Part shown: in pieces, positions 5,035-22,967 of the stretch
Position numbering within the stretch: the stretch's first letter is position 1
Layout: every line of letters starts with the position of its first letter
Assembly: GCA_035480035.1 (NCBI GenBank)
Contig: DATIID010000001.1
Span: 73,323-137,322, forward strand
Source: Candidatus Saccharimonadales bacterium
GTDB lineage: Bacteria > Patescibacteriota > Saccharimonadia > Saccharimonadales > OMJO01
Reading direction: 5' to 3'
DNA length: 64,000 bases
Notes under the pieces: model-generated
The model's input: only the letters and a program-made list of their open reading frames with translations
Database searches by the model: none
What the model was told of the DNA's origin: nothing
Made by a program: the position numbers and the translations under genes

Positions 5035-6120
5035 ATGGCGGATCTTAAGAAACAATACGACGATTTAAACCAGGCTGTCGGTGTGACGGTTAATCAATTG
5101 AAGCTCGATAATGTAGAGAGTGAGCTTGATAAGTTGACTAACGCTAGCCATCAAGCGGGTTTTTGGGATAATCCGACCAAGTCGCAAGCAACCATGAAAC
5201 GGATTGCTGATTTGTCGTCTAGAATCAAACCATGGCAAACTATCCAGAAATCGCTGTCTGATGTAAAAGAATTGCTCGAAACCAATGATAATAGTCTGAA
5301 TGATGAACTAATTGAACAAATAAAAGGGCTTGCCGATGACTTTGATGAGTTGAAGTCACAACTAAAGCTGTCTGGACCTTATGATGATCACGATACAATT
5401 ATTAGCATTTATGCTGGTGCCGGTGGTACTGATGCTCAAGATTGGGCCGATATGCTCCGGCGAATGTATCTTAGATACGCTGAAAAAGCTAGTTACACAG
5501 TTCGCGTGCTTGATGAATCAGTTGGCGAAGAAGCTGGTTTGAAAAGTACGACTTTTGAAATTGATGGTGACTTCGCTTACGGTAAATTAAAAGGTGAGCA
5601 CGGTGTCCACCGACTAGTTCGCTTAAGTCCATTTAATTCTGATAACCTTCGACAAACTAGCTTTGCTAGAGTTGAAGTAGTACCCAAAGTCGCCCAGCCA
5701 GATGAGATTGAAATTGATGAAAAAGATCTGAAAGTCGATGTTTTTCGCAGCGGTGGACACGGTGGTCAAAGCGTTAATACTACTGACTCAGCGGTTCGGT
5801 TAACTCATCTGCCGACTAATATTGTAGTGTCGATTCAGAACGAGCGTTCTCAGCTTCAAAATAAAGAAACGGCAATGACGATTCTACGTTCCAAACTGGC
5901 CCAACTACAGCTCGAACAACACACTAAAAATTTGCGTGAGCTGAAAGGTCCTAATGAGCAGGCGGCGTGGGGCAATCAAATTCGTAACTACGTTTTGCAT
6001 CCTTATAAACAGGTCAAAGATTTAAGAACTCGACACGAATCCAGTGATCCGGATAAAGTGCTTGACGGTGATTTAGAGCCGTTTATTGAAGCTTATTTAG
6101 AGCAGTCTATCGGCGATTAG
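5035..6120 (+). CDS. prfB: Peptide chain release factor 2 (single uninterrupted frame)
   Basis: SPF tripeptide (RLSPFNS) and GGQ motif (SGGHGGQSVN). No in-frame TGA or +1 frameshift site. TATAAT 5022-5027 lies 7 nt before the ATG. Confidence 0.95.
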   Translation: MADLKKQYDDLNQAVGVTVNQLKLDNVESELDKLTNASHQAGFWDNPTKSQATMKRIADLSSRIKPWQTIQKSLSDVKELLETNDNSLNDELIEQIKGLADDFDELKSQLKLSGPYDDHDTIISIYAGAGGTDAQDWADMLRRMYLRYAEKASYTVRVLDESVGEEAGLKSTTFEIDGDFAYGKLKGEHGVHRLVRLSPFNSDNLRQTSFARVEVVPKVAQPDEIEIDEKDLKVDVFRSGGHGGQSVNTTDSAVRLTHLPTNIVVSIQNERSQLQNKETAMTILRSKLAQLQLEQHTKNLRELKGPNEQAAWGNQIRNYVLHPYKQVKDLRTRHESSDPDKVLDGDLEPFIEAYLEQSIGD

Positions 6121-6142
6121 CTGGTTTGGTATAATAAAGCTA

Positions 6143-6835
6143 ATGATTTTACTCGATCGGGTAACCAAAACTTACGCTAAAAACAACGCACTAGACCGTA
6201 TCAGTCTGCATGTTGAGCCGAAAGAATTTGTCATTATTATTGGTAAAAGTGGGGCTGGCAAATCAACTTTGCTTAAACTATTGACTCGTGAAGAACTGCC
6301 TAACAGCGGTAAAATTATTGTTGGCGGGTTGGACTATGACAAATTAAAAGACAGTGATATCCCGCTGCTTCGACGTAAAATTGGCGTTGTCTTTCAAGAT
6401 TTTAAATTACTACCCAACCGTAACGCGTATGAAAATGTAGCTTTTGCGCTCGAAATTGTTGGTTATGGCAATAAAGAAATTAAGCACACCGTACCACGAG
6501 TACTTGATATTGTCGGGTTGAAAGGCAAAGAAAAGAGCATGCCACTAGAGCTGTCCGGTGGTGAGCGTCAGCGAGTGGCCATTGCCAGGGCAATTGTTCG
6601 TCAGCCAAAGATTTTGATTGCCGACGAGCCCACTGGCAACCTCGACCCCAAGCACGCTTGGGATGTTATTAAGGTACTCGAAAAAATTAACCGCTTCGGC
6701 ACTACCGTACTATTAACTACTCATAACCAAGAAATCGTTAATCGTTTAAAGCGCCGAGTCATTACTATTGACGAGGGTCGGATTACTAGTGACCGAGCCA
6801 ATGCCGAATATCACCAAAAGAGGCCGGCCGCATGA
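6143..6835 (+). CDS. ftsE: Cell division ABC ATPase FtsE
   Basis: Walker A GKSGAGKST, signature LSGGERQR, Walker B ILIADEPTGNLD. Overlaps ftsX by 4 nt. TGgTATAAT 6127-6135 lies 7 nt before the ATG. Confidence 0.93.
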   Translation: MILLDRVTKTYAKNNALDRISLHVEPKEFVIIIGKSGAGKSTLLKLLTREELPNSGKIIVGGLDYDKLKDSDIPLLRRKIGVVFQDFKLLPNRNAYENVAFALEIVGYGNKEIKHTVPRVLDIVGLKGKEKSMPLELSGGERQRVAIARAIVRQPKILIADEPTGNLDPKHAWDVIKVLEKINRFGTTVLLTTHNQEIVNRLKRRVITIDEGRITSDRANAEYHQKRPAA

Positions 6836-10735: not shown

Positions 10736-12337
10736 GTGTTAAAAAAACCGACTAAATTTATTTTTGTAACAGGTGGTGTGCTTTCCGGACTCGGCAAGGG
10801 TATCACCGCCGCCTCCATCGGTAATCTCCTCAAAGCTCGAAAACTAAAAGTCAACATTCAAAAATGTGATCCATATCTCAATGTTGACGCTGGTTTGTTG
10901 AATCCACGCGAGCATGGCGAGTGTTTTGTTACTAAAGACGGCGCTGAGACTGATCTTGACCTTGGTCATTATGAACGATTTCTGGACGAAGAACTGACTG
11001 GCGTTAGTAGTTTGATGAGCGGGCGGGTGCTACTAAAAGTTATTCAAGATGAACGAGCTGGTAAATACGATGGTGACGATGTACAAATTATTCCACACCT
11101 GACCAAGGCCATTCAGGATTATATAATTGAAGCCGGAAGGGGCTATGACGTTCACATTGTCGAAATTGGCGGCACGGTCGGCGACTACGAGAGCTTAAGT
11201 TTTATTGAAGCGATTCGAGAAATGGCTCTACGGGTTGGTCGCGAGAACTGTCTTTATGTTCACGTCGTTTATTTGCCATATCTAGGCGCTAGTCAAGAAA
11301 TCAAAACTAAGCCAGCTCAAAACTCCGTCCGAGAACTGCGTGGACTCGGTATTAGCCCAGATATTTTAGTGGCTCGTAGCGAAAAACCAGCCAATGGTGG
11401 CGTTAAACGTAAGTTAAGTTTGTTTTCGGGTGTTGCTGAAGAATCAATTGCACTTTTGCCGAATGCTAAAAGCATCTACCAAGTACCTTTGACCCTTGAG
11501 GATACCGGTATTGCTGACGTTATTTGCAAGCGTCTCGCGGTCAAAGCCAAAAAGCCTGATCTCAAAGATTGGCGTCAGGTAGTTAAACGTGCCGAAACCA
11601 AACATAAAAAACTAGTAACAGTTGGCGTAGTCGCTAAATATATGGATAACACCGATACTTATTTGTGCGTATTTGAAGCTTTGAAGGCGGCGGCATGGTG
11701 GAACGATGTAAAACTAAAAATTCGTTGGATTGAAGCTGAGAGTTTAGCTAAAAAACGCAACCTTGATGGCGTCTTTGCTGGTATCGATGGCATTGTTGTA
11801 CCTGGTGGTTTTGGCACACGTGGCCTAGAGGGCAAAATTAAAGCCGCCCAGTATTCGCTCAAGACTGGTTTACCATATCTAGGTTTATGTTTAGGCCTGC
11901 AAATGGGGGTGATTGCAGCAGCTCGCAACGCTGGCGTTAATGATGCTACCTCGGAGGAGCTTAATGCTAAAAGTAAAGATATAGTAATTAGCACAATGGC
12001 CGGACAACGTGGTAAAGAAAACACTGGCGGTACCATGCGGCTGGGCGACTACCCGTGCGTTATCGAAAAGGGTAGTTTGGCTGAAAAAGTTTATGGTTCA
12101 ACTAAAATTATCGAACGTCACCGTCATCGTTATGAATGCAGTAACGAATACCGTGATCAATATGAAAAATGGGGCATTAAAGCCGTCGGTACTAGCCCAG
12201 ACAACTTCTTGGTTGAGATGATTGAAGCTGTCAATCACCCATTTTTCCTAGCAAGCCAATTCCATCCAGAATTTAAATCTAGGCCAAATCGGGCTCACCC
12301 AATGTTCGACGGTTTTATTAAATCATTTATAAAATAA
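10736..12337 (+). CDS. pyrG: CTP synthase
   Basis: N-terminal KFIFVTGGVLSGLGKGI, GATase triad region GLCLGLQ and HRHRYE. GTG start after a GGAGAGGAG SD. Confidence 0.97.
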   Translation: MLKKPTKFIFVTGGVLSGLGKGITAASIGNLLKARKLKVNIQKCDPYLNVDAGLLNPREHGECFVTKDGAETDLDLGHYERFLDEELTGVSSLMSGRVLLKVIQDERAGKYDGDDVQIIPHLTKAIQDYIIEAGRGYDVHIVEIGGTVGDYESLSFIEAIREMALRVGRENCLYVHVVYLPYLGASQEIKTKPAQNSVRELRGLGISPDILVARSEKPANGGVKRKLSLFSGVAEESIALLPNAKSIYQVPLTLEDTGIADVICKRLAVKAKKPDLKDWRQVVKRAETKHKKLVTVGVVAKYMDNTDTYLCVFEALKAAAWWNDVKLKIRWIEAESLAKKRNLDGVFAGIDGIVVPGGFGTRGLEGKIKAAQYSLKTGLPYLGLCLGLQMGVIAAARNAGVNDATSEELNAKSKDIVISTMAGQRGKENTGGTMRLGDYPCVIEKGSLAEKVYGSTKIIERHRHRYECSNEYRDQYEKWGIKAVGTSPDNFLVEMIEAVNHPFFLASQFHPEFKSRPNRAHPMFDGFIKSFIK

Positions 12338-12381
12338 TGCCCTGATTGCGGGCTACTTATGATTGTGCTAACATCAGCAGT

Positions 12382-12888
12382 ATGGATGAACCAACAACCG
12401 AACCGAATGACTTAGCTATACCAAATATCGGTGCCCACCCGCAACCTGTTGCGCCAGCTCCAACGACAGCACCAGATGTTACTCAGCCAGCTAAAACTGA
12501 TGCCCCAGCTGATGGTTCGAAAAAGAAAATTCTATTAGTCGAAGACGACGAAGCGCTAGCTTCAGTTTATACAACTCGTCTAACGGCTGAAGGTTTTGAA
12601 ATTAAAAACGTACTCAACGGCGAAGAAGCTTTATCCGGTGCAATTAATTTCAAGCCAGATCTAATTTTGCTTGATGTAATGATGCCACGGGTGAGTGGGT
12701 TTGATGTTCTGGATATTATTCGCAACACTCCCGAAACTGCTAATATGAAGGTCTTAATGCTAACGGCGTTAAGCCAAGATGCTGATAAACAACGGGCTGA
12801 AAGTCTGGGCGTCAATGATTACATTGTTAAATCACAAGTTGTTATTGCTGACGTTGTCGAACGTATCAAAAAACAATTAGGGATGTAA
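12382..12888 (+). CDS. Stand-alone response-regulator receiver with Pro/Ala/Thr-rich N-terminal tail
   Basis: REC residues intact (VEDDE, LLDVMMP, MLTAL, IVKS). The tracked ORF starts at TTG 12346. I prefer ATG 12382, preceded by TTGCGG-17-TAACAT (12346-12374) plus 7 nt. Confidence 0.85.
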   Translation: MDEPTTEPNDLAIPNIGAHPQPVAPAPTTAPDVTQPAKTDAPADGSKKKILLVEDDEALASVYTTRLTAEGFEIKNVLNGEEALSGAINFKPDLILLDVMMPRVSGFDVLDIIRNTPETANMKVLMLTALSQDADKQRAESLGVNDYIVKSQVVIADVVERIKKQLGM

Positions 12889-13163: not shown

Positions 13164-14405
13164 TTATTTCCTGATTAAGACGACCAGTTCGCGGCCAACA
13201 AATTGGCCGGGTCGATAATAAATTAACTGCTCATGGCGGGCATGCGCAAAACTCAAACGATTGTACCCCATATCTGTTAATCGGTCAAGTAGCGGCAAAT
13301 GTTTAAAGGTTTGGCTGCTTTGCCACGCTGGTACAGCCAAACATATCCGAAAACCAGCTTTGGTTTGACTTCTTAGGTTTAGTAAAAACTTTTTTAAAAT
13401 AAGATCAACTTCACCTACAGTCTGATTTAAGATAGTTGGGTTTGGCGTCGAAGTAAAAGGGCGGCCTAAATATGTTTCGCTGGCTACTATCGTAAAGTCG
13501 TGTTGCCACTGGGCTTGGCTAGCGTCACCTTGTTCCAGAAAGTAATTTGTGGGCGCCAACCGAAACTTCTCAACCAGCCAGTCCAAATTTTGTTTAGAAT
13601 AGTTAACCATGCGTTCATCAATGTCCGAGCCGTAGGTGTTATAGCCCATCAGTTGAGCTTCCTGCAAAATCACGCCGGTGCCACAAAACGGATCCAGAAT
13701 TACTTTGTCTACAAAGTGGGGTGCTGGGATTGGTACATCGGGTGGGATATCGCAGACCGACTGTTTAGCTTCGTCTGGCAACTCGCCGACCGCTAAATTG
13801 ATGATGATTTGGGCTAGTTTGGGCGGTAGCATACCGACTCGGGCATCGCGCTTTGGCCGGCCGCGATCGCGCAGTGTATATGAATTAATATCTTGAACTT
13901 TAATCGATTGGGCAACTAGAGTTTGGTTGCCATTTTTGATAAAAATTAATTCCCAGCCAAGTGGACCGGTCAGCTGGTTATGTAAAACTTGGGCACTCGA
14001 CAAAGCTGGTTCAGTATTAGGTACCAGGCGCACTGAACGACCAGATCGAGCGATGGCTTTCTTTATTGTTAGACCGCTGGCCATTAGTTTTTTGGGTGAT
14101 AATTTAAAGTCGTAAACACTCAAACCAAGTCGCATTTTACCGACTGGCAATTTAGCAGCATGGCCAGGCGAAACTTCTATTAGGAATTTCTCAATATCTG
14201 ACCAATTAGTAGTTTCCAACTCGGTTAAGACTTTGCAAAATTTAAGGCTACCACCTAAGCGGTCAAAAGCTAGCAGGCAGGGATCAACGTCAACTAGCAC
14301 CGCTTGAGTGCCAAGCGGTTTAATTTTGCTAGAGCCGTACAGACTTTCCAATTCGGCCAAGCCAATGGCCGGCTGGCGCCCCAAAATGCACAATGATCGC
14401 ATCAT
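13164..14405 (-). CDS. Putative SAM-dependent RNA methyltransferase (UPF0020/THUMP-associated type)
   Basis: Class I MTase motif I DPFCGTGVILQEA. Directly upstream of rpmA. TATACT (14413-14418, - strand) lies 7 nt before the ATG. Confidence 0.6.
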   Translation of the reverse strand: MMRSLCILGRQPAIGLAELESLYGSSKIKPLGTQAVLVDVDPCLLAFDRLGGSLKFCKVLTELETTNWSDIEKFLIEVSPGHAAKLPVGKMRLGLSVYDFKLSPKKLMASGLTIKKAIARSGRSVRLVPNTEPALSSAQVLHNQLTGPLGWELIFIKNGNQTLVAQSIKVQDINSYTLRDRGRPKRDARVGMLPPKLAQIIINLAVGELPDEAKQSVCDIPPDVPIPAPHFVDKVILDPFCGTGVILQEAQLMGYNTYGSDIDERMVNYSKQNLDWLVEKFRLAPTNYFLEQGDASQAQWQHDFTIVASETYLGRPFTSTPNPTILNQTVGEVDLILKKFLLNLRSQTKAGFRICLAVPAWQSSQTFKHLPLLDRLTDMGYNRLSFAHARHEQLIYYRPGQFVGRELVVLIRK

Positions 14406-14454
14406 CGTAGCTAGTATACCGTGACTAGCTAATTTTCAGGTATAATTAACGTTA

Positions 14455-15498
14455 ATGTCCGAGAAACGAAAAGCTGCCTGGAAGCTAATCTTAAATATGG
14501 TCACTATCGTGGCTTTGATAGTTTTGGTTTACGCGGTTCGCAGTCAAATCCACGATACGATCGACAACTTAGCTAAGGTTAACGCTTGGGCCTTGCCGTT
14601 TATGTTGGTTTGGCAAGCACTCAATTACCATAGCTACGCCAAAATGTACCAGCAGTACTTTCGAATTTTGGGCGAGCGTTTGCGTTATCGCTCGCTACTT
14701 CGAGTAACTTTAGAGTTAAATTTTGTAAATAATGTTTTCCCCAGCGGCGGCGTATCTAGCTTTTCATACTTTAGTTTGCGAATGAAAGATGCAGATGTGC
14801 CGGGGCATAAATCAGCGCTAGTCCAACTTGCCAAATTTATTACTGTGTTTATTTCGTTTCAAATTTTGTTAATCTTTGGTCTGCTGTGTCTGGCGATTGC
14901 CGGACACGCCAATGGTTTAACCTTGTTAGTGTCGGGCTCTTTGGTAACATTGTTAGCCGTTCTGACACTAGGGTTGGGTTTTGTAATTGGCAGTAAGAAA
15001 CGAATTAATGATTTCTTTACATTTGTTACTAGATTAATTAATCGTTTAATTCATGTTTTTCGTCGCGCTTATCCGGAGACCATCAATATTGCTAAAGCCC
15101 GCGAACAGTTCAATCAACTTCATGAAAATTACATGGTCCTAAAATCTGACTGGCGGCAATTCAAGGGCCCCTTGTTTTGGGGTTTTTTGGCTAATTTAAC
15201 TGAGTTACTAACAATTTATACGGTTTATGTAGCGTTTGGAAAATGGGTTAATCCCGGCGCTGTAATTTTAGCTTATGCGGTGGCTAATTTCGCTGGTTTA
15301 ATCTCCATATTGCCAAGTGGCGTGGGCATTTATGAGGCTTTAATGACAGCCGTATTAGCGGCATCGGGAATCTCACCTGGTGTCAGTCTGCCAGTAACAA
15401 TTATGTACCGAGTGTTAAATATGTTAATTCAATTGCCGCCTGGTTATTATTTCTACCATCAAGTCCTTCATCCAAAACCGACCGTCGTTCAAGAGTGA
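14455..15498 (+). CDS. Polytopic membrane protein, UPF0104 / lysyl-PG-synthase-TM-like (flippase-like)
   Basis: ~8 predicted TM helices. C-terminal LPSGVGIYEALMTAVLAASG resembles UPF0104. TATAAT 14441-14446 lies 8 nt before the ATG. Confidence 0.6.
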   Translation: MSEKRKAAWKLILNMVTIVALIVLVYAVRSQIHDTIDNLAKVNAWALPFMLVWQALNYHSYAKMYQQYFRILGERLRYRSLLRVTLELNFVNNVFPSGGVSSFSYFSLRMKDADVPGHKSALVQLAKFITVFISFQILLIFGLLCLAIAGHANGLTLLVSGSLVTLLAVLTLGLGFVIGSKKRINDFFTFVTRLINRLIHVFRRAYPETINIAKAREQFNQLHENYMVLKSDWRQFKGPLFWGFLANLTELLTIYTVYVAFGKWVNPGAVILAYAVANFAGLISILPSGVGIYEALMTAVLAASGISPGVSLPVTIMYRVLNMLIQLPPGYYFYHQVLHPKPTVVQE

Positions 15499-15512
15499 TA
15501 TGATGGTGAGTA

Positions 15513-16631
15513 ATGACAGAGACGATTTGGTCAGTTTCAGATTTTGTAGCGGTCTTTAATCAGACGCTAGAATATGCTTATCCAAGTATTACAATTGTTG
15601 GTGAACTTAGTAACTTTCGGATAAGCCGCGACCGCTGGGTTTACTTTGATTTAAAAGATGAGTTATCATCAGTAAAATTTTTTGGCTCTGTTCAACAGCT
15701 CAGTGGCCCGCTTGAAGACGGCTTAATGCTGCAGGTTAGGGGAACGCCGCGACTACACTCCCTATACGGCTTTAGCATTAACATTCAATATATGAGTCCG
15801 GTCGGCGCCGGCTCGCTTAAAAAGGCAGCTTCATTGCTCGAGGCCCAATTAACCAAGGAAGGTCTGTTTGAGGATAGTCGCAAACGGTCACTGCCGCATC
15901 CACCGGCAACGCTAGGCTTAATTGCATCCATTGAATCAGCGGCTTACCATGACTTCATAAAAATTATGAATCAACGCTGGGTGGGGGTTGATGTTAGGGT
16001 TATTGACGTGCAAGTCCAAGGCGAACCCGCACCGGCCCAGCTAGTTAATGCTATTGAATATTTTAATAGCCATTTAAGCCCGGTTGACGCGCTGGTTATC
16101 ACGCGTGGTGGGGGCAGTGTCGACGATCTGGCGGCTTTTAATGTTGAATCGGTGGTTCGTGCCGTGGCCGCCAGCCGAATTCCAACTTTGGTAGCGATTG
16201 GCCATGAAGTTAATGTCAGTTTAGCTGAATTAGCGGCTGATCAGCGGGCCAGCACACCGTCCAACGCCGCTGAGCTATTATTTCCCGATAAACACGAGGT
16301 CTTGAGCAGACTGGATTCGATTAAGCTACAATTAACAAATCTAATCAACGTAAATCTTTCAATCACTGCTAATCAATTATTAAACTTCGAACAGGATTTA
16401 TTGACTGAGTGGCGACAGCAACGAAAGATAGCCACCACGCAATTAGCCCTCCGGCAGCAAATTATTGAAGCTTTGAACCCCGCCTTAGCCCTAAAACGTG
16501 GTTATGCCATCGTTCGTGGCGCTAACCAACAAATTATTAAATCAGTTCGGTCGTTATCGAAAAATGATAAGGTCCAAATTGACTGGTCCGACGGCTCGGC
16601 CAATGCGCAAGTCGATAGCATTAGAAAATGA
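15513..16631 (+). CDS. xseA: Exodeoxyribonuclease VII large subunit
   Basis: N-terminal OB fold (VVGELSNFRISRDRWVYFDLKD), catalytic core (ITRGGGSVDDLAAFN) and synteny with xseB. Confidence 0.9.
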   Translation: MTETIWSVSDFVAVFNQTLEYAYPSITIVGELSNFRISRDRWVYFDLKDELSSVKFFGSVQQLSGPLEDGLMLQVRGTPRLHSLYGFSINIQYMSPVGAGSLKKAASLLEAQLTKEGLFEDSRKRSLPHPPATLGLIASIESAAYHDFIKIMNQRWVGVDVRVIDVQVQGEPAPAQLVNAIEYFNSHLSPVDALVITRGGGSVDDLAAFNVESVVRAVAASRIPTLVAIGHEVNVSLAELAADQRASTPSNAAELLFPDKHEVLSRLDSIKLQLTNLINVNLSITANQLLNFEQDLLTEWRQQRKIATTQLALRQQIIEALNPALALKRGYAIVRGANQQIIKSVRSLSKNDKVQIDWSDGSANAQVDSIRK

Positions 16632-16662
16632 TTCATTTTATAATGTAATTATTGGAGATTAA

Positions 16663-16854
16663 ATGGCAGACTACCGTAAATTGAGTACTGAACTAGATGA
16701 GGTAATCAACAAATTGCAGAATGATGATTTGGATATTGATCAAGCGGCCGAAGTTTATGAAAAAGGTATGAATCTGATTCAACAAATGGAGAAACACCTC
16801 AAAACCGTTGAAAATAAAGTTACCAAAATCAAAACCAAACTCGAAAAATCGTGA
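16663..16854 (+). CDS. xseB: Exodeoxyribonuclease VII small subunit
   Basis: 63-aa helical protein directly after xseA, with GGAG SD. Confidence 0.85.
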   Translation: MADYRKLSTELDEVINKLQNDDLDIDQAAEVYEKGMNLIQQMEKHLKTVENKVTKIKTKLEKS

Positions 16855-17357
16855 CCATGCATATCTTTTGGCTAGTATTATGGATCGTTTGTTTAACAAT
16901 CTTTTTGCTGTTCACTTTTGTGATTGCATTTGGTGCGCCGTTTCTGCCAATTCTAAGACATCAAGTTAAACCGGCACTTGATATGATCGATCTCAAACCG
17001 GGCCAAACTTTACTTGAGCTGGGGAGTGGTGACGGGCGAATTTTGATCGCTGCAGCCCAGCGTGGTTTCAGCGCTATTGGCTACGAGCTTAACCCATTAC
17101 TGGTAATTTACTCTTGGTTAATCACTAGGCGCTATCGTAAGCAAGTTAAGGTTATCTGGGGCAACTACTGGCAGAAAGACTGGCCTAGAGCTGATGGTAT
17201 TTTCGTCTTTTTATTACAACCTTATATGGAGAAGTTGGATAAAAAAATTATGCAATATAAGCATAGGCCTGTAAAGCTGGTGAGCTTCGCATTTACCATA
17301 AATAGCCGTAAACCAAGCAAGAAAATCAAGGGTTTATACCTGTACACCTATAAATAA
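16851..17357 (+). CDS. Membrane-anchored class I SAM-dependent methyltransferase
   Basis: N-terminal TM, then motif I LLELGSGDGRILIAAA. Overlaps the xseB stop by 4 nt. Confidence 0.6.
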   Translation: MTMHIFWLVLWIVCLTIFLLFTFVIAFGAPFLPILRHQVKPALDMIDLKPGQTLLELGSGDGRILIAAAQRGFSAIGYELNPLLVIYSWLITRRYRKQVKVIWGNYWQKDWPRADGIFVFLLQPYMEKLDKKIMQYKHRPVKLVSFAFTINSRKPSKKIKGLYLYTYK

Positions 17358-17375
17358 TGTGTTAACATTAACATT

Positions 17376-18050
17376 ATGCAGACCAGTGATAACACCGTAG
17401 ACCCCGGCAATAGTGCTGGCAATGTGATTGTTTCATTGATACTAGTAGTTTTGCTGGTGGCGTCGTTAGGTTTTGGTTTTTGGGCTTATGCCAGCATGTC
17501 AGATTACAAGAATAACGTTGATAAAAAAATTGCCGACGCTAGCGCAATAGTCAAACAGCAAACTGCATCGGAAAAAGATAAGGAATACTTAGAAAAAGAC
17601 AAAAGCCCGTTCAAGCAATACACCAGTCCTGATTCGCTCGGCAGTGTTAAGTTTCAGTATCCCAAGACCTGGAGCGCATACATTGTTGAAGCCAATAGCA
17701 ACGATGACACACCAATCAACGGTTATTTTGAGCCAGATTTTGTACCCGATATCACCGGCAATTCCACCTATTCATTACGCTTTAAAGTTGTAAATCAGAG
17801 TTTTAATAATGTACTGACTGACTATAGTGATAAGGTTAGTGGTGGAACGGTTAAGTCCATACCTTATCGGGCTCCAAAAGTCTCAAGTATACTTGGTACT
17901 CGCTTGGACGGACCGGTTAATGATGGTCAAAAAGACAGCATGGTGATTATACCTATTCGTGATAAAACATTAGAAATTTGGACAGAGTCGGATCAATATC
18001 TTGCTGATTTTAACAACACAGTTTTACCTAGTTTGACCTTCTCACCATAA
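17376..18050 (+). CDS. Hypothetical membrane-anchored extracytoplasmic protein
   Basis: Single N-terminal TM (VIVSLILVVLLVASLGFGFWAY). TGtTAACAT 17360-17368 lies 7 nt before the ATG. Confidence 0.55.
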   Translation: MQTSDNTVDPGNSAGNVIVSLILVVLLVASLGFGFWAYASMSDYKNNVDKKIADASAIVKQQTASEKDKEYLEKDKSPFKQYTSPDSLGSVKFQYPKTWSAYIVEANSNDDTPINGYFEPDFVPDITGNSTYSLRFKVVNQSFNNVLTDYSDKVSGGTVKSIPYRAPKVSSILGTRLDGPVNDGQKDSMVIIPIRDKTLEIWTESDQYLADFNNTVLPSLTFSP

Positions 18051-18104
18051 ACTGCTCGGTGCTATACTAAAGATTAAGTAAAGAGAGGGTAGAGTCTAAC
18101 TTCT

Positions 18105-18788
18105 ATGACTATTTCTGGCTTTGAGCCGAAACAGCGTTTGTTGTTGGTGTTGGCCGAACAGTTGAAAATGCCGCTGTTACAAATTGCCCGTAGTGCTGAG
18201 CTAGAGCAATTTGGCGAGGTGGCGACAACAGCCGATGTCGCACTCAAGTTAATCGACAGTTATATCTTAAGCATCATGCCTCACCAAACCGAATTGGCGC
18301 TTGAGCCAGTGTCGGCGGCGGCCGTTTTACAAGATGTCGCCCACGAGCTAAGTAAATTTGCTAATCAATATGATTGCAAATTAAAATTGGACATCAGTGG
18401 CAAATATCAGCCCGTTATGGCCAATCGGCAAAACTTAATGTCAGCTTATACCATGCTCGGTTATTCGTTTATTGAAGCCCAGTCGGTTGATGATCAAACA
18501 CCGACGATAGTGTTGGCAGCACATAAGAGTGGTCAAGGTTTGGTGGCCGGAGTATTTTCTGAGCAAGCTGATTTAAGTGGCGATATGTATCGGCGAGCCA
18601 AAGCCCTCTATGGCACCACACGTCAACCATTGACTAGCTTGAGTTCGGTAGCCGGCGCCGGTGTATTTATCGCTGATTCGCTTATGCAAGCTATGGCTAC
18701 ACCGTTACACCCATCACACCACCATAAATTAAGCGGTTTGGCGGCTACATTGCTGCCCAGCCAACAATTACAGTTTTATGTCAGCTAA
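18105..18788 (+). CDS. Degenerate histidine-kinase-like protein (DHp + CA-like; phospho-His replaced by Glu)
   Basis: H-box-like LAEQLKMPLLQI aligns to sHELRTPLtsI with H->E. N-box Asn and G1 DxGxG are absent, and the G2 remnant is GAGVFIA. Soluble, 227 aa. Confidence 0.6.
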   Translation: MTISGFEPKQRLLLVLAEQLKMPLLQIARSAELEQFGEVATTADVALKLIDSYILSIMPHQTELALEPVSAAAVLQDVAHELSKFANQYDCKLKLDISGKYQPVMANRQNLMSAYTMLGYSFIEAQSVDDQTPTIVLAAHKSGQGLVAGVFSEQADLSGDMYRRAKALYGTTRQPLTSLSSVAGAGVFIADSLMQAMATPLHPSHHHKLSGLAATLLPSQQLQFYVS

Positions 18789-19170
18789 AATTTTAATTAT
18801 CGAGCCCGATCGTCGCTTGGGCAAAATTTATCATAGCTCACTTAGTAATCTTGGTTATCAAGTCAACCATCGATTAAGTGCTGAAGCTGCTTTAAAAATA
18901 ATGGACTTGGAAATACCAGATTTAATTATTATCGAGCCGCAATTAGTTAAACACGGCGGTTTCGAGTTTTTATATGAACTAAGATCTTACCAAGATTGGC
19001 AAGCCATGCCAGTTATAATTAACAGCTTTATCCCGGTTGAAGTTTTGAAATATATGCACGCTGCTCTTGATCAACTTGGTGTTGTACGGCAACTATACAA
19101 ACCAGACACCACCCTTAAGCAGTTAACTGAAGTCTGCCAAACTGTGTTGCAACCTAACCCTTCAACTTAA
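18778..19170 (+). CDS. Pseudo-receiver domain protein (phospho-Asp replaced by Glu)
   Basis: REC fold with IIEPD in place of the DD pair and IIIEPQL in place of the D57 site. The Ser (T87 position) and Lys (LYKPD) are retained. Overlaps the upstream gene by 11 nt. Confidence 0.65.
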   Translation: MSAKILIIEPDRRLGKIYHSSLSNLGYQVNHRLSAEAALKIMDLEIPDLIIIEPQLVKHGGFEFLYELRSYQDWQAMPVIINSFIPVEVLKYMHAALDQLGVVRQLYKPDTTLKQLTEVCQTVLQPNPST

Positions 19171-19862
19171 TGAAATCACTGGTCGATCAAGGTATTGTGC
19201 TAAGCCGGACTAATTTTCAGGAAGCCGATCGGATCTTAACAGTTATAACCGCCAATCACGGCAAAATTCGTTTGATGGCTAAAGGAGTTCGTAAAGTCAA
19301 ATCTAAATTGGCTGGCGGCATTGAATTATTCAGTATCAACGACCTAACTTTTATTGAGGGTAGGGGCGAAATTGATACCCTGATTTCATCACGACTCAAA
19401 CAAAATTTCGGTCATATTATTAGTGATATCAACCGGACGATGTTTGGCTATGAATTACTTAAGCGACTTAACCGTGCGACCGAAGATAATGCCGACATTG
19501 AATATTTTGAATTATTAGCCAAAGCCTTGAATGGTTTAAATGATTTGTTGCTTGAACAGGAACGAATTGAGCTGTGGTTTAATTGTCAGTTGTTAAAATT
19601 AGCTGGCCACTCACCAAATCTTAAAAATGATACAAATAATCAACCGCTTAAATCTAATCAGACTTACCAGTTTGATATCGAAGACATGACATTTACAACT
19701 AATCCAGACGGACGTTATAACGCTAACCAAATAAAACTTTTACGTTTAGCTATTTTAAGTGAAAAACCCGAACGTCTGGGTCAAATCAAAAAAATTGGTT
19801 ATAACCTGACAGACTGCCTACAATTATCCAAACTGATGGTCGGGCAGTTTATTCGAAGCTAA
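19170..19862 (+). CDS. recO: DNA repair protein RecO
   Basis: N-terminal OB fold GIVLSRTNFQEADRILTVITANHGKIRLMAKGVRK and ~230 aa size. Starts 1 nt inside the upstream stop. Confidence 0.85.
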   Translation: MKSLVDQGIVLSRTNFQEADRILTVITANHGKIRLMAKGVRKVKSKLAGGIELFSINDLTFIEGRGEIDTLISSRLKQNFGHIISDINRTMFGYELLKRLNRATEDNADIEYFELLAKALNGLNDLLLEQERIELWFNCQLLKLAGHSPNLKNDTNNQPLKSNQTYQFDIEDMTFTTNPDGRYNANQIKLLRLAILSEKPERLGQIKKIGYNLTDCLQLSKLMVGQFIRS

Positions 19863-19885
19863 AAATTAAATATAATAATAACGTT

Positions 19886-20305
19886 ATGAATTTAGTAGGT
19901 GAAACGGAGTTTGCGCTAGTTGATCCAGAACAGGATGCTAGTGTTGATTGGTCAGCTTTGAATTTGGTAATTGCTGACATGAAAAACCATGGTTATCCTT
20001 CGCCGGTGGAACTTGAAGACAGCTATGGTCAGATAAAATCACCAGTTGGTCCAGATGAACTAACTAACCTGGCCGGTTTCTTGATAACCCATAGCGAGGT
20101 GATTGCATATGAATCAGAGTTAAAAGAGCGACAAGAGTCTAAACATGATCATACTTTTACAGGAGCCCGTAACACCATAACCTTTTTACGTTCGGCAATT
20201 GGGGTTTTTCGAGAAAGTGTTAGGAATCGCCGTGAACTGAAAGTCGAAGAAAGACTAGTTAACGATATCAAAATTCGACCTGAAACCACTGATATTTTTG
20301 ACTAA
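19886..20305 (+). CDS. Hypothetical protein (139 aa)
   Basis: ORF only. TATAAT 19871-19876 lies 9 nt before the ATG. Confidence 0.5.
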   Translation: MNLVGETEFALVDPEQDASVDWSALNLVIADMKNHGYPSPVELEDSYGQIKSPVGPDELTNLAGFLITHSEVIAYESELKERQESKHDHTFTGARNTITFLRSAIGVFRESVRNRRELKVEERLVNDIKIRPETTDIFD

Positions 20306-20381
20306 CTTAGTTTAATCAGCCACCTGATTATTTTGTTATTTGCGAGCAAAATGGTATAATATATGTGGTTCGGGATAAATT

Positions 20382-20876
20382 ATGAAACCCAAAGCATTGG
20401 TTAACATTGTGGCTATGGCTGCATTATCGGGTGGTATAGCGGCGGCTGGCGAAGCCAAGTTTCAGAGCGCCTATGATCATAAACAAGTTGGTCTTGCCGG
20501 TGACTGTAGTGACCTGCTGACTGATCAGCTTCAGCTTAAGGTTAAGTCATTACCTGATGGTTGTGATCAGGTCGATAGTAATTTAATTGTTACAGTCCGC
20601 CAAGAAATTCCATACGTGCCAGGTGACTACACTTTACCAGTTCGCCAGGTGTTTGAAACCGAACAAGCCGATTATCATCAGCAACGAGTCGAGCAATTTG
20701 ATAAGAATGTGATTGAATTTGGCGTTGGTGGCTTTGTTCTCGTTGGGTTGGGTGAGCTGGCCCTGGCTGAAATGTGGCGCCGTAATCAAAAAATCGAAGC
20801 TGTCCGGCCACGCGCGACACGGCAACCAGTAACTCATCCGGTCAGTACGGCTAAGCCACTTGACGAAAAATTGTAA
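20382..20876 (+). CDS. Hypothetical secreted/membrane protein (164 aa)
   Basis: N-terminal signal-like segment (LVNIVAMAALSGGIAAAG) and a C-terminal hydrophobic helix. TGgTATAAT at 20352-20360. Confidence 0.5.
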   Translation: MKPKALVNIVAMAALSGGIAAAGEAKFQSAYDHKQVGLAGDCSDLLTDQLQLKVKSLPDGCDQVDSNLIVTVRQEIPYVPGDYTLPVRQVFETEQADYHQQRVEQFDKNVIEFGVGGFVLVGLGELALAEMWRRNQKIEAVRPRATRQPVTHPVSTAKPLDEKL

Positions 20877-20908
20877 AATATCATAACGAATAAGCTATAA
20901 TTCCTCTA

Positions 20909-22210
20909 ATGAGTAAAACATCCTTAGATGACATTGTGTCTTTGGCTAAACGGCGCGGTTTTATTTATCAAGGTTCGGAAATTTACGGTGGACTGGCAGG
21001 TACTTGGGACTACGGTCCGCTTGGCGTTCAACTAAAGCGCAACATTGTTAACTTGTGGTGGAAAATGTTCGTCGAGAACCGCAATGACATGTATGGCTTA
21101 GACGCAGCAATTTTAATGAACTCGAAAGTCTGGCAAGCGAGTGGTCACGCTACTGGCTTTAATGATCCAATGGTGGAATGCAGTAATTGTCATTCACGGC
21201 TGCGAGCTGATCATGTCAAGGATGATAAATGTCCAGTTTGTGGCAAAACCAAGACTTTTGGCAAACCCAAACAGTTCAATATGATGTTTCAAACCCAAGT
21301 TGGCCCGGTCAATGACGACAAGTCAAAGAGTTATTTAAGGCCTGAAACGGCTCAAGGTATTTTTGTAAATTACAAAAACGTGATTGATACATTTAGCCCG
21401 GACTTACCGTTTGGCATTGCTCAAATCGGCAAAGCTTTTCGCAATGAAATTAGCCCACGTGACTTTACATTCCGATCGCGTGAGTTTGAGCAAATGGAAA
21501 TTGAATATTTCATTGATCCCAAAGACTGGCAGACGGAATTTAATAAGTGGGTCGAAAGTATTTATGAGTTCTTGAATGTCTTAGGACTAACCAAAACACA
21601 CGTTCATGAGCTGGATGTACCAGCCAAAGATCGGGCCCATTACAGCGAGAAAACAATTGACTTTGAGTTCGACTATCCGTTTGGCAAAAGTGAATTGCTT
21701 GGCTTAGCTTATCGAACGGATTTTGATCTAAAAAATATTGAAACGGCGACAGGCAAATCAATGGACTATAGGCCAAAAGATGGGTCAAAGCCATTTGCGC
21801 CACACGTTATCGAGCCAAGTTTTGGATTGGATCGCTTAGTCCTAGCAATTTTGGTGATGGCCTATGATGAAGACAAACAAAACGACGAATCACGCACCTA
21901 TTTGAAGTTACCGGCTTACATTGCACCAGTGAAGATTGCCGTCAGTCCGTTACTCAAGAACAAGCCTGAGCTAGTTAAAAAGGCCAGAGCAGTTTATGAT
22001 CAGCTCAAACAAAAATTTGGAGCGGTCATGTGGGACGATAATGGCAATATCGGCAAGCGCTACCGTCGTCAAGACGAAATTGGTACACCATATTGTGTCA
22101 CAATAGACTTTGATACTCTTGATAATGACACGGTCACTGTTCGTAGTCGTGATACTACAGAACAAATACGAGTTAAAATACAAGATGTTTCAAACAGCAT
22201 TAAGATTTAG
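20909..22210 (+). CDS. glyQS: Glycine--tRNA ligase (dimeric alpha2 type)
   Basis: N-terminal RRGFIYQGSEIYGGLAGTWDYGPLG, class II motifs, C-terminal anticodon-binding domain. TATAAT 20896-20901 lies 7 nt before the ATG. Confidence 0.95.
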   Translation: MSKTSLDDIVSLAKRRGFIYQGSEIYGGLAGTWDYGPLGVQLKRNIVNLWWKMFVENRNDMYGLDAAILMNSKVWQASGHATGFNDPMVECSNCHSRLRADHVKDDKCPVCGKTKTFGKPKQFNMMFQTQVGPVNDDKSKSYLRPETAQGIFVNYKNVIDTFSPDLPFGIAQIGKAFRNEISPRDFTFRSREFEQMEIEYFIDPKDWQTEFNKWVESIYEFLNVLGLTKTHVHELDVPAKDRAHYSEKTIDFEFDYPFGKSELLGLAYRTDFDLKNIETATGKSMDYRPKDGSKPFAPHVIEPSFGLDRLVLAILVMAYDEDKQNDESRTYLKLPAYIAPVKIAVSPLLKNKPELVKKARAVYDQLKQKFGAVMWDDNGNIGKRYRRQDEIGTPYCVTIDFDTLDNDTVTVRSRDTTEQIRVKIQDVSNSIKI

Positions 22211-22253
22211 TTATTATTAGACTAAATAAAAATATTGATTTGAGAGAGGTCTA

Positions 22254-22967
22254 ATGAATCAAGACAAGTTACTGAGTAGTTATTTTTTTGAAAGCTCCGA
22301 ACCAAACGGCGAACTGGTAAGTTATGCCGCTGGTTATAACTCCAAAATAAAAACCTATAATCATGCTGTTAAAACTCTCAACAATATGGGTTATGACGTA
22401 TTGGCGTTTGATTATGATCCAGCAGTACTACAAGCCGGACAGCCACAGTATTTACTGGATGTCGTTGATCGGGCGGTTGAGCAAGTCAAAGACAAGTCTA
22501 AAGACTATCAAGAGACTGTGAGTATGGGTGTGAGCCTGGGTGGCTTTATTGGTTACAATGTGCTTAAACGAATTGGCAGTTCGTCGGTTGGAGCTTTTGC
22601 TGATTGTGGTGTTGATTTTGTACCAGCAATTTTTAATTCTGGCACTTTAGATGACGTTGCCAAAGCTTACCAAAACAATGGTTATGACCAAGCTAGTTTA
22701 AATCGAATTTGGGAACCGCTGGATGTTGAACCATCAAAAGCGACATTCCCTAAAGACAAGTCGTTTATTGTGTTTGATGGTACACGAGACAAGCTGATTG
22801 ACTTTAACGAAGCTAAACAAAATATTGAAGATTGGGCTGCTAAGGGCATCAATGTTAAACAATATCCATTAAAAGGCCTCGGTCATTTATTAACCGGTGC
22901 TTATTTCGTGCGTCACACTAAGAAGATAATTGGGATGGCTAAAGAATTTCATGCCCAGATTGGCTAA
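22254..22967 (+). CDS. Putative alpha/beta-fold hydrolase
   Basis: Nucleophile-elbow-like GVSLGG and a late His (GLGHLL). Weak, motif-level call only. Confidence 0.5.
   Translation: MNQDKLLSSYFFESSEPNGELVSYAAGYNSKIKTYNHAVKTLNNMGYDVLAFDYDPAVLQAGQPQYLLDVVDRAVEQVKDKSKDYQETVSMGVSLGGFIGYNVLKRIGSSSVGAFADCGVDFVPAIFNSGTLDDVAKAYQNNGYDQASLNRIWEPLDVEPSKATFPKDKSFIVFDGTRDKLIDFNEAKQNIEDWAAKGINVKQYPLKGLGHLLTGAYFVRHTKKIIGMAKEFHAQIG

Follow-up and report, generated by a model that had tools for sequence, protein, structure and literature searches.

Two overlapping genes directly upstream of recO in a Candidatus Saccharimonadales bacterium encode what appear to be the two halves of a former two-component system. 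They lie in a stretch of 64,000 nucleotides (contig DATIID010000001.1 of assembly GCA_035480035.1, positions 73,323 to 137,322 of the forward strand), referred to here as the window, whose own numbering is used throughout. The first gene encodes a pseudo-histidine kinase-like protein, HKL, and the second a single-domain, aspartate-less pseudo-receiver, REC. The explanation that we favor, with moderate confidence, is that a HisKA-type two-component system has lost phosphotransfer and has been retained as a protein–protein module, in which HKL and REC form a scaffold or adaptor complex. According to the structural model and the alignments, HKL keeps the fold of a kinase core and has lost the phospho-accepting His as well as the ATP-binding motifs. 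REC, as judged by alignment, keeps the receiver fold together with Ser/Thr83 and Lys108, and has lost the second metal-binding acid in all pairs compared and the phospho-accepting Asp in its own subfamily. Comparison with relatives indicates that the pair is conserved, tightly coupled and under purifying selection. The genes at the same position in Southlakia epibionticum, the one Saccharibacterium with transposon insertion sequencing (Tn-seq) data, are needed for epibiotic growth, and the pair is probably important for growth.

The kinase-like protein

Two large subfamilies of homologues are distinguished, A, which includes the pair of the window, with 553 HKL homologues at E ≤ 0.001 in a word-indexed search, and B, with 363. 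An exhaustive profile search with HKL retrieves 600 clusters at 50% identity at E ≤ 0.001 (433 at E ≤ 1e-10), and the proteins are about 180–255 aa long in all 150 matches listed.

The AlphaFold2 (AF2) model of HKL has a mean predicted local distance difference test score (pLDDT) of 73.9 and a predicted template modeling score (pTM) of 0.68. It consists of a dimerization and histidine phosphotransfer (DHp) hairpin, formed by helices 8–33 and 37–57 and covering about residues 8–57, and an alpha/beta domain at about residues 67–216 that resembles the domain for catalysis and ATP binding (the CA domain), in which the lid region, residues 171–193, is disordered (pLDDT <50). The protein is predicted to be soluble, with no sensor domain and with no transmembrane (TM) segment in the AF2 secondary structure. 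The top Foldseek matches of the model are histidine-kinase cores (ZraS, HK853, CpxA and the RetS region), with a probability of 1.00 and a best E of 5.6e-9, and the modeled arrangement, a DHp hairpin followed by a CA alpha/beta domain, is that of the sensor histidine kinase fold.

A Pfam and NCBIfam scan of the window's HKL gives no match at E ≤ 1, HisKA and HATPase_c included. HisKA is matched by one of 40 HKL members of subfamily A (E 0.087) and by seven of 49 of subfamily B (best E 0.0012, under the cut-off), and HATPase_c by none of either set. A profile built from 40 HKL homologues finds CpxA as its best match among PDB sequences (E 0.0015–0.013), in an alignment that lays LAEQLKxPL on ISHELRTPL and puts Glu18 at the phospho-His. 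Alignment by hhalign to the verified Escherichia coli proteins EnvZ, CpxA and PhoR returns the same H-box register, with Ser/Ala121 where the N-box has Asn and x-x-Gln-x-Gly/Asp where G1 has DxGxG. The initial annotation, made by eye from the sequence of the window, had proposed the His-to-Glu change in the H-box and the loss of the N-box Asn and of G1, and its manual alignment was right on each of these points. HKL therefore lacks the phospho-His, the N-box Asn and the G1 DxGxG of sensor histidine kinases, and the sole remnant of the ATP motifs is G2, GAG(I/V)F. The HisKA phosphatase motif, an acid at +1 and Thr or Asn at +4, is not present in the H-box either, which reads E-Q-L-K-x-P. Collins and Childers (as cited in PMC12632262) apply the term pseudo-histidine kinase to proteins of kinase fold that have lost at least one kinase function and still play a part in a network. 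HKL agrees with this in sequence, its loss of activity and its role in a network being presumed.

The best single PDB sequence match of the profile is 4biz, a CpxA chain deposited as ISEELRTPL, in which Glu replaces the phospho-His. This chain outscores wild-type CpxA (21.3 vs. 18.1 bits), apparently owing to that Glu.

The receiver-like protein

REC scores 35.5 bits against the Pfam family Response_reg (PF00072), above the gathering score of 30.2. Its AF2 model (pLDDT 93.5) has a (beta-alpha)5 fold, for which Foldseek returns the pseudo-receiver of FrzS first (E 2e-9), then RR468 and DivK, with TM-scores of 0.8–0.87, and in both fold and Pfam score REC is a receiver domain. RR468 is also its best PDB sequence match (E 1.8e-13). 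In this HMM alignment, Glu9-Pro10 of REC correspond to Asp9-Asp10, Glu53 to Asp53, Ser83 to Thr83, and Lys108 to Lys105, so that two of the five active-site positions (Glu9, Pro10, Glu53, Ser83 and Lys108) carry lesions, namely Pro10 and Glu53. Asp-to-Glu at residue 53 and the retention of Ser83 and Lys108 agree with the initial annotation, which had also counted the first acidic position as altered. That part does not stand, since canonical KdpE in the same alignment has Glu-Asp and Glu at this position is not a lesion. Pseudo-receivers are defined as recognized receivers that miss at least one of the five residues, and aspartate-less receivers as those that miss the Asp (PMC12632262); REC fits both definitions through Pro10 and Glu53.

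Residue states at the former phospho-sites

Among species representatives, Glu18 of HKL is kept in 66 of 67 subfamily A orthologues, and in REC, Glu9, Ser/Thr83 and Lys108 are found in 66/66 and Pro10 and Glu53 in 65/66. The H-box residue across 267 family members is mostly E (238), followed by Q (10), D (9), H (3), L (2), A (1) and R (1), and the N-box and G1 motifs are absent in all 267, including those with His. In subfamily B, which has the same gene context as subfamily A, the H-box residue of 120 members is D in 92, E in 14, N in 6, H in 3 and Y in 2, and the receiver mostly has Asp at the phospho-site, its second acidic position being occupied by Ser, Thr or Ala. The double Glu state, whose conservation in relatives the initial annotation had proposed to check, is thus largely kept in subfamily A and gives way to other states, Asp/Asp among them, in subfamily B.

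The states of the two proteins can be read together as a triplet (HKL site, REC second acid, REC phospho-site) in 128 cleaned pairs. E,P,E occurs in 65 pairs and D,(S/T/A),D in 32, and D,P,D, D,P,E, N,S,D and E,S,D are also present. At the second acidic position, the residue is P, S, T, A or G, and none of the 128 pairs has Asp or Glu there. HKL members with His go with Glu-type receivers, and a subfamily A HKL with Asp18 has a partner receiver with Glu53. The lesions common to every case checked, as read from the alignments, are therefore those of the ATP-binding motifs in HKL and of the second metal-binding acid in REC. Since Glu/Glu is one of several states and mixed pairs occur, mimicry of a phosphorylated residue by Glu cannot be a general principle, and on these alignments it is at most a feature of the window's clade.

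Two loci show a change at a single site with the partner unchanged. In locus L049 (5704–6087), a subfamily A receiver has Asp at the phospho-site, retains the Glu-Pro-Asp of the acidic pair and goes with a Glu-type HKL, and in locus L020, HKL has Asn at its site and the receiver is of the Glu type.

A strict covariation of Glu with Glu and of Asp with Asp was considered and is not claimed here. An association is seen (HKL Asp with REC Asp in 38 pairs vs. REC Glu in 4; HKL Glu with REC Glu in 8 vs. REC Asp in 4), but mixed states occur and the association is inseparable from the split into two clades. The proposal of the initial annotation that the two proteins are a co-evolved, phosphotransfer-dead partner pair holds in that both lack the phosphotransfer residues and form a conserved gene pair; co-evolution of the two sites at the level of residues cannot be told apart from the clade split.

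Conservation and coupling to recO

HKL and REC are found as intact, full-length open reading frames (ORFs) in hundreds of lineages, at 40–76% identity and with many invariant positions. A scan of one genome per species yields 69 loci, with titles that are mostly Saccharibacteria and, in a few cases, other or unspecified taxa. Wherever the contig is long enough, the gene order in these loci is xseA, xseB, (methyltransferase), membrane-anchored protein, HKL, REC and recO, with glyS further on. Intact pairs with the same neighbors are present in these 69 genome loci and in about 70 metagenome loci, the order PsbP-like protein, HKL, REC, recO is found in essentially all of about 150 loci that reach far enough, and the membrane-anchored protein stands directly 5′ of HKL in every locus that reaches it, in both subfamilies. 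Given these orthologues, the pair is not the product of decay confined to this strain, an alternative that the initial annotation had raised. A shift of its own alignment, which it had also considered, is contradicted by the profile alignments, which place neither His nor Asp at the phospho-sites of the two proteins.

The genes are also tightly spaced. In the window, HKL and REC overlap by 11 nt, and the REC stop codon and the recO ATG have one base in common (TAATG), in agreement with the initial annotation, which had placed the recO start inside that stop codon. In most loci, the HKL–REC spacing is −4 to +4 nt. REC and recO overlap by 4 nt in 52 of 63 species loci and by 1 nt in five more, and by 4 nt in 40 loci of subfamily B, so that the linkage first noted in a single genome extends to its relatives. 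The coupling to recO is specific, as overlaps of 4 nt or 1 nt occur in only four of the window's 54 same-strand neighbor pairs. The linkage is, on this comparative evidence, real and conserved.

Exceptions to the spacing are found in locus L048 (5672–6272), with 581 nt between HKL and REC, and in loci L007 and L008 (about 6050–6230), with 142–152 nt between REC and recO. In a subfamily B lineage (L074, 1–10747, and L075), xseA and xseB are missing between a flippase-like and a methyltransferase-sized gene, and the pair is still at recO.

Positions conserved in at least 95% of 128 sequences from both subfamilies are, in HKL, Pro23 and Glu32 of DHp helix 1 and Gly149, Gly170, Gln174, Gly186, Ala190, Asp191 and Gly211 of the CA-like domain. 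In REC, they are Glu9, Asp11 and Lys108 and a block in helix alpha3 and just behind it that comprises Gly61, Glu63, Leu65, Glu67, Arg69, Ser70, Tyr71 and Trp74, of which residues 61–69 are helical in the AF2 model. Residues 61–74 are thus the most conserved stretch of the receiver and likely form a functional surface.

Requirement in Southlakia epibionticum

The window is collinear between 9101 and 22210 with SEML1_0237–0249 of S. epibionticum, from an S41 peptidase gene to glyS. The order in S. epibionticum is S41 peptidase, response regulator, L27, flippase-like, xseA, xseB, methyltransferase, hypothetical protein, kinase, regulator, recO and glyS, and both junctions, kinase–regulator and regulator–recO, are 4-nt overlaps. 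Such long-range synteny makes neighborhood alone weak evidence of shared function in this phylum.

Tn-seq data for S. epibionticum ML1 give insertions in the input and at T0, T1 and T2, and genes are called non-essential (NE), growth-defect (GD) or essential (ES) at T0, T1 and T2, in this order (PMC10633639, Table S1). The kinase-like gene SEML1_0246 (708 bp), annotated as “HAMP domain-containing histidine kinase,” is called GD, GD, ES, with 32, 8, 3 and 1 insertions, and SEML1_0247 (366 bp), receiver-like and annotated as a response regulator, is called NE, GD, ES, with 10, 2, 1 and 0 insertions; by the definition of that study, both are class II essential (PMC10633639). The gene upstream of them, SEML1_0245, the positional counterpart of the membrane-anchored protein gene of the window, which is Mog1p/PsbP-like by structure and enriched in Patescibacteria, is essential at T0 already (ES, ES, ES; 18, 1, 0 and 0 insertions) (PMC10633639). 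S. epibionticum recO, in turn, is called NE, NE, GD, with 38, 25, 36 and 29 insertions, and recF likewise tolerates many insertions (PMC10633639). Because insertions in recO are tolerated just upstream of the essential glyS, downstream polarity is not the cause of the phenotype of the pair.

Proposed role and alternatives

In the reading favored here, the ancestor was probably a system of the HK853/RR468 type. HKL would dimerize via its DHp helices, and REC would dock on it in the ancestral kinase–regulator geometry; conserved regions include the DHp helix that follows the H-box (PLLQIARxAEL) and the beta5-alpha5 region of REC (YKPxTxL). A permanent complex may be held in part by Lys108 and the carboxylates that occupy the former phospho-sites. 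Output would run via the invariant alpha3 face of REC, or via the lid-derived loop of HKL (GxxRQP…GAGxFxAD), either of which may bind a third partner, and the complex would act as a scaffold or adaptor, not as a signal relay. A more specific form of this proposal, which we put forward tentatively, is an obligate, phosphorylation-independent heterocomplex with carboxylates (Glu/Glu or Asp/Asp) and the Lys and Ser/Thr in the former phosphotransfer center, which would be essential for epibiotic growth through binding of the alpha3 face to a partner and would possibly link RecO-dependent DNA transactions to a function in the envelope or the cell cycle.

Several points weigh against the module as proposed. 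The HKL–REC complex is deduced from sequence and its partner is a postulate, and helix alpha1 of REC, the usual specificity surface of receivers, is variable. Mutual information with average product correction over the 128 concatenated pairs carries no contact information, as its top inter-protein pairs mirror the split into subfamilies A and B and its top signal pairs one REC column with many HKL columns. In the Tn-seq data, insertions in the kinase-like gene could be polar on the receiver gene. The S. epibionticum pair also has published Pfam scores (HATPase_c i-E 6.9e-6, HisKA 3.4e-4, Response_reg 1.2e-17; PMC10633639) that surpass every score seen in subfamilies A and B; it may be less degenerate, or even active, which weakens the transfer of its phenotype to the window.

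The place of recO suggests another role, in which the pair would be devoted to RecO, as its accessory or regulator, and would, for example, load, stabilize or gate the recombination mediator. We regard this as unlikely but worth weighing, as the 4-nt coupling recurs in both subfamilies and such overlaps are rare in the window, the exonuclease VII genes lie upstream in most loci, and the pair stays at recO even in the lineage that has no xseAB at the locus. Yet the coupling may merely set the expression of recO, and a few loci have REC and recO separated by the 142–152 nt mentioned above. In S. epibionticum, moreover, recO and recF tolerate insertions, whereas the two genes upstream of recO are depleted to 0 or 1. 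From these contrasts it follows that the important function of the pair cannot run through RecO alone, and because the Tn-seq phenotypes of the pair and of recO differ, RecO is not its sole or main client. Either recO rides on the expression of the pair, or the wider role of the pair includes RecO.

A partner switch or sequestration device is, in our estimate, quite unlikely. In this scheme, HKL would keep a regulator bound to its CA-like domain, much as GHKL-type anti-sigma factors do, and REC would compete for it or release it upon binding of a ligand in the remodeled nucleotide pocket. The disordered lid loop does carry conserved residues (Gly170, Gln174, Gly186, Ala190 and Asp191), and HKL has no sensor domain, so any input must reach the core itself. 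However, the idea is drawn purely from conservation, with no candidate target identified and no recognizable ligand-binding motif.

Cryptic activity is very improbable. It would require non-canonical chemistry, for example at His140 of HKL or His59 of REC, or a phosphatase or phosphate-sink function toward the regulator encoded at 12346–12888, a canonical orphan receiver with an intact active site nearby. The two His residues are invariant within the alignments of 40 and 13 sequences, but in subfamily B most receivers have Arg in place of His59, and about a quarter of the family has Tyr, Arg or Lys in place of His140. The absence of ATP-binding motifs, of the HisKA phosphatase motif and of a second metal-binding acid in REC speaks against it as well.

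That the proteins are non-functional relics, kept only by their position inside the operon, is close to untenable: every catalytic motif is lost and the former phospho-site residues vary, as relics would have it, but the idea is already contradicted by the conservation of the ORFs and of their invariant positions, by the confident model of REC and, in S. epibionticum, by how insertion mutants of the genes at the same position become depleted.

A split sensor, in which the upstream membrane protein would signal to HKL by a cytoplasmic tail, was considered as well and set aside, as its N-terminal tail is not conserved and nothing points to a contact with HKL.

Comparison with known systems

By analogy, the nearest precedents of the module proposed here are Streptomyces PsmA, which is the closest, and Caulobacter DivL. 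In PsmA, a histidine pseudokinase, the His position is taken by Glu, Asp, Gln, Val or Tyr, depending on the species, and the protein serves as a DivIVA-binding scaffold with degenerate ATP motifs, no autokinase activity and a receiver Asp that is dispensable (PMC12963549). HKL shares with it the HisKA-like core, the variable residue at the His position, the degenerate ATP motifs, the absence of a D/ExxT/N phosphatase motif and the tie to a receiver, whose phospho-site in PsmA is not needed. PsmA differs in size and layout: one polypeptide exceeding 1300 aa carries PAS domains, a long disordered linker and, fused to them, a receiver whose Asp is still present. It also binds DivIVA and is confined to Streptomycetaceae, whereas HKL is a bare core of 227 aa with a receiver that is encoded by a separate gene and is itself degenerate.

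DivL, which is essential in Caulobacter, is kinase-like, has no phospho-His and is believed to bind a single-domain receiver via its DHp region. It carries a membrane anchor and PAS sensor domains, has Tyr in the place of the phospho-His, and binds the phosphorylated form of DivK, a true receiver that other kinases phosphorylate. REC has DivK among its best structural matches, but REC cannot be phosphorylated in the canonical way. HK853–RR468 of Thermotoga maritima combines DHp and CA domains with a stand-alone receiver, as HKL and REC do, and the best fold matches of both proteins include HK853 and its complexes with RR468. The T. maritima pair has His260, Asp9, Asp10 and Asp53 as well as the N, G1 and G2 boxes; of these, HKL and REC retain only the G2 remnant.

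REC also resembles FrzS, HP1043, ChxR and the plant pseudo-response regulators (PRRs), which have a receiver fold with an incomplete active site (PMC4395418; PMC12632262). According to a 2025 review, Glu is the commonest phospho-site residue in aspartate-less receivers, HisKA domains without His amount to 0.9%, and all but two of the 20 characterized bacterial atypical regulators are orphans (PMC12632262). FrzS binds its partner by the alpha3-beta4-alpha4 side (PMC12632262), and alpha3 is the most conserved surface of REC. Unlike the mostly orphan atypical regulators, REC has a conserved and equally degenerate kinase-like partner in its operon, and no output domain. Neither a pseudo-two-component pair of Saccharibacteria nor a conserved operonic pair with both partners degenerate was found in the literature searched.

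Gene neighborhood

The features of the locus are collected in Table 1. The product of recO is a standard RecO, with matches to RecO_N (E 1.8e-18) and RecO_C (E 3.7e-5) and 85.3 bits against TIGR00613 (cut-off 48.7). A promoter and terminator scan of 14300–22400 gives counts no higher than those of shuffled controls; one extended −10-like site lies at 18039–18068, ahead of HKL.

Table 1. Coordinates of HKL, REC and neighboring features in the window.
Feature	Position	Strand	Description
Membrane-anchored protein upstream of HKL	17376..18050	+	N-terminal TM helix; conserved DYKNNVD and YPKTW motifs
HKL (pseudo-histidine kinase-like)	18105–18788	+	ORF of 227 aa
Glu18 codon of HKL (GAA)	18156..18158	+	Position of the phospho-accepting His; from sequence and alignments
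REC (pseudo-receiver, single-domain, aspartate-less)	18778–19170	+	ORF of 130 aa
Glu9-Pro10-Asp11 of REC (GAG CCC GAT)	18802..18810	+	Pro10 in place of the second metal-binding acid
Glu53 codon of REC (GAG)	18934..18936	+	Position of the phospho-acceptor Asp
REC residues 61–74	18958..18999	+	Helix alpha3 and following loop, GxEFLYELRSYxxW
recO	19170–19862	+	ORF of 230 aa; RecO_N and RecO_C; TIGR00613

About 5 kb upstream of the pair, on the same strand, the gene at 12346–12888 encodes a single-domain response regulator of the canonical kind. Its active site is intact (LLVEDDE, LILLDVMMP, MLTA, VKS), and a stretch of about 60 aa rich in Pro and Ala extends its N-terminus. No kinase gene adjoins it. 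Its place, ahead of the L27 gene, which is on the opposite strand, is that of SEML1_0238 in S. epibionticum, a gene that is dispensable there. Between the peptidase and this regulator, the window has a CTP synthase ORF at 10736–12337 that does not appear in the S. epibionticum excerpt. Between recO and glyS, two ORFs on the plus strand, 19886–20305 (139 aa) and 20382–20876 (164 aa), have no significant Pfam match. A counterpart of the first is found in one of 69 related loci (L029) and of the second in none, and the two are a lineage-specific insertion within an otherwise conserved stretch.

Significance

Pseudo-receivers and histidine pseudokinases are known singly, and how they work is for the most part unsolved. 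In the present case, degeneration has affected the two halves of a single system, which stay together, translationally coupled, in the many Saccharibacteria lineages sampled, where regulators are very few. The case is also a warning for annotation, since HKL is labeled “hypothetical protein,” “histidine kinase” or “KdpD” and REC “response regulator.” With 227 aa and 130 aa, the pair is a compact test case for how dead two-component proteins work, which natural transformation makes genetically tractable, and it is a candidate core function of the epibiotic lifestyle.

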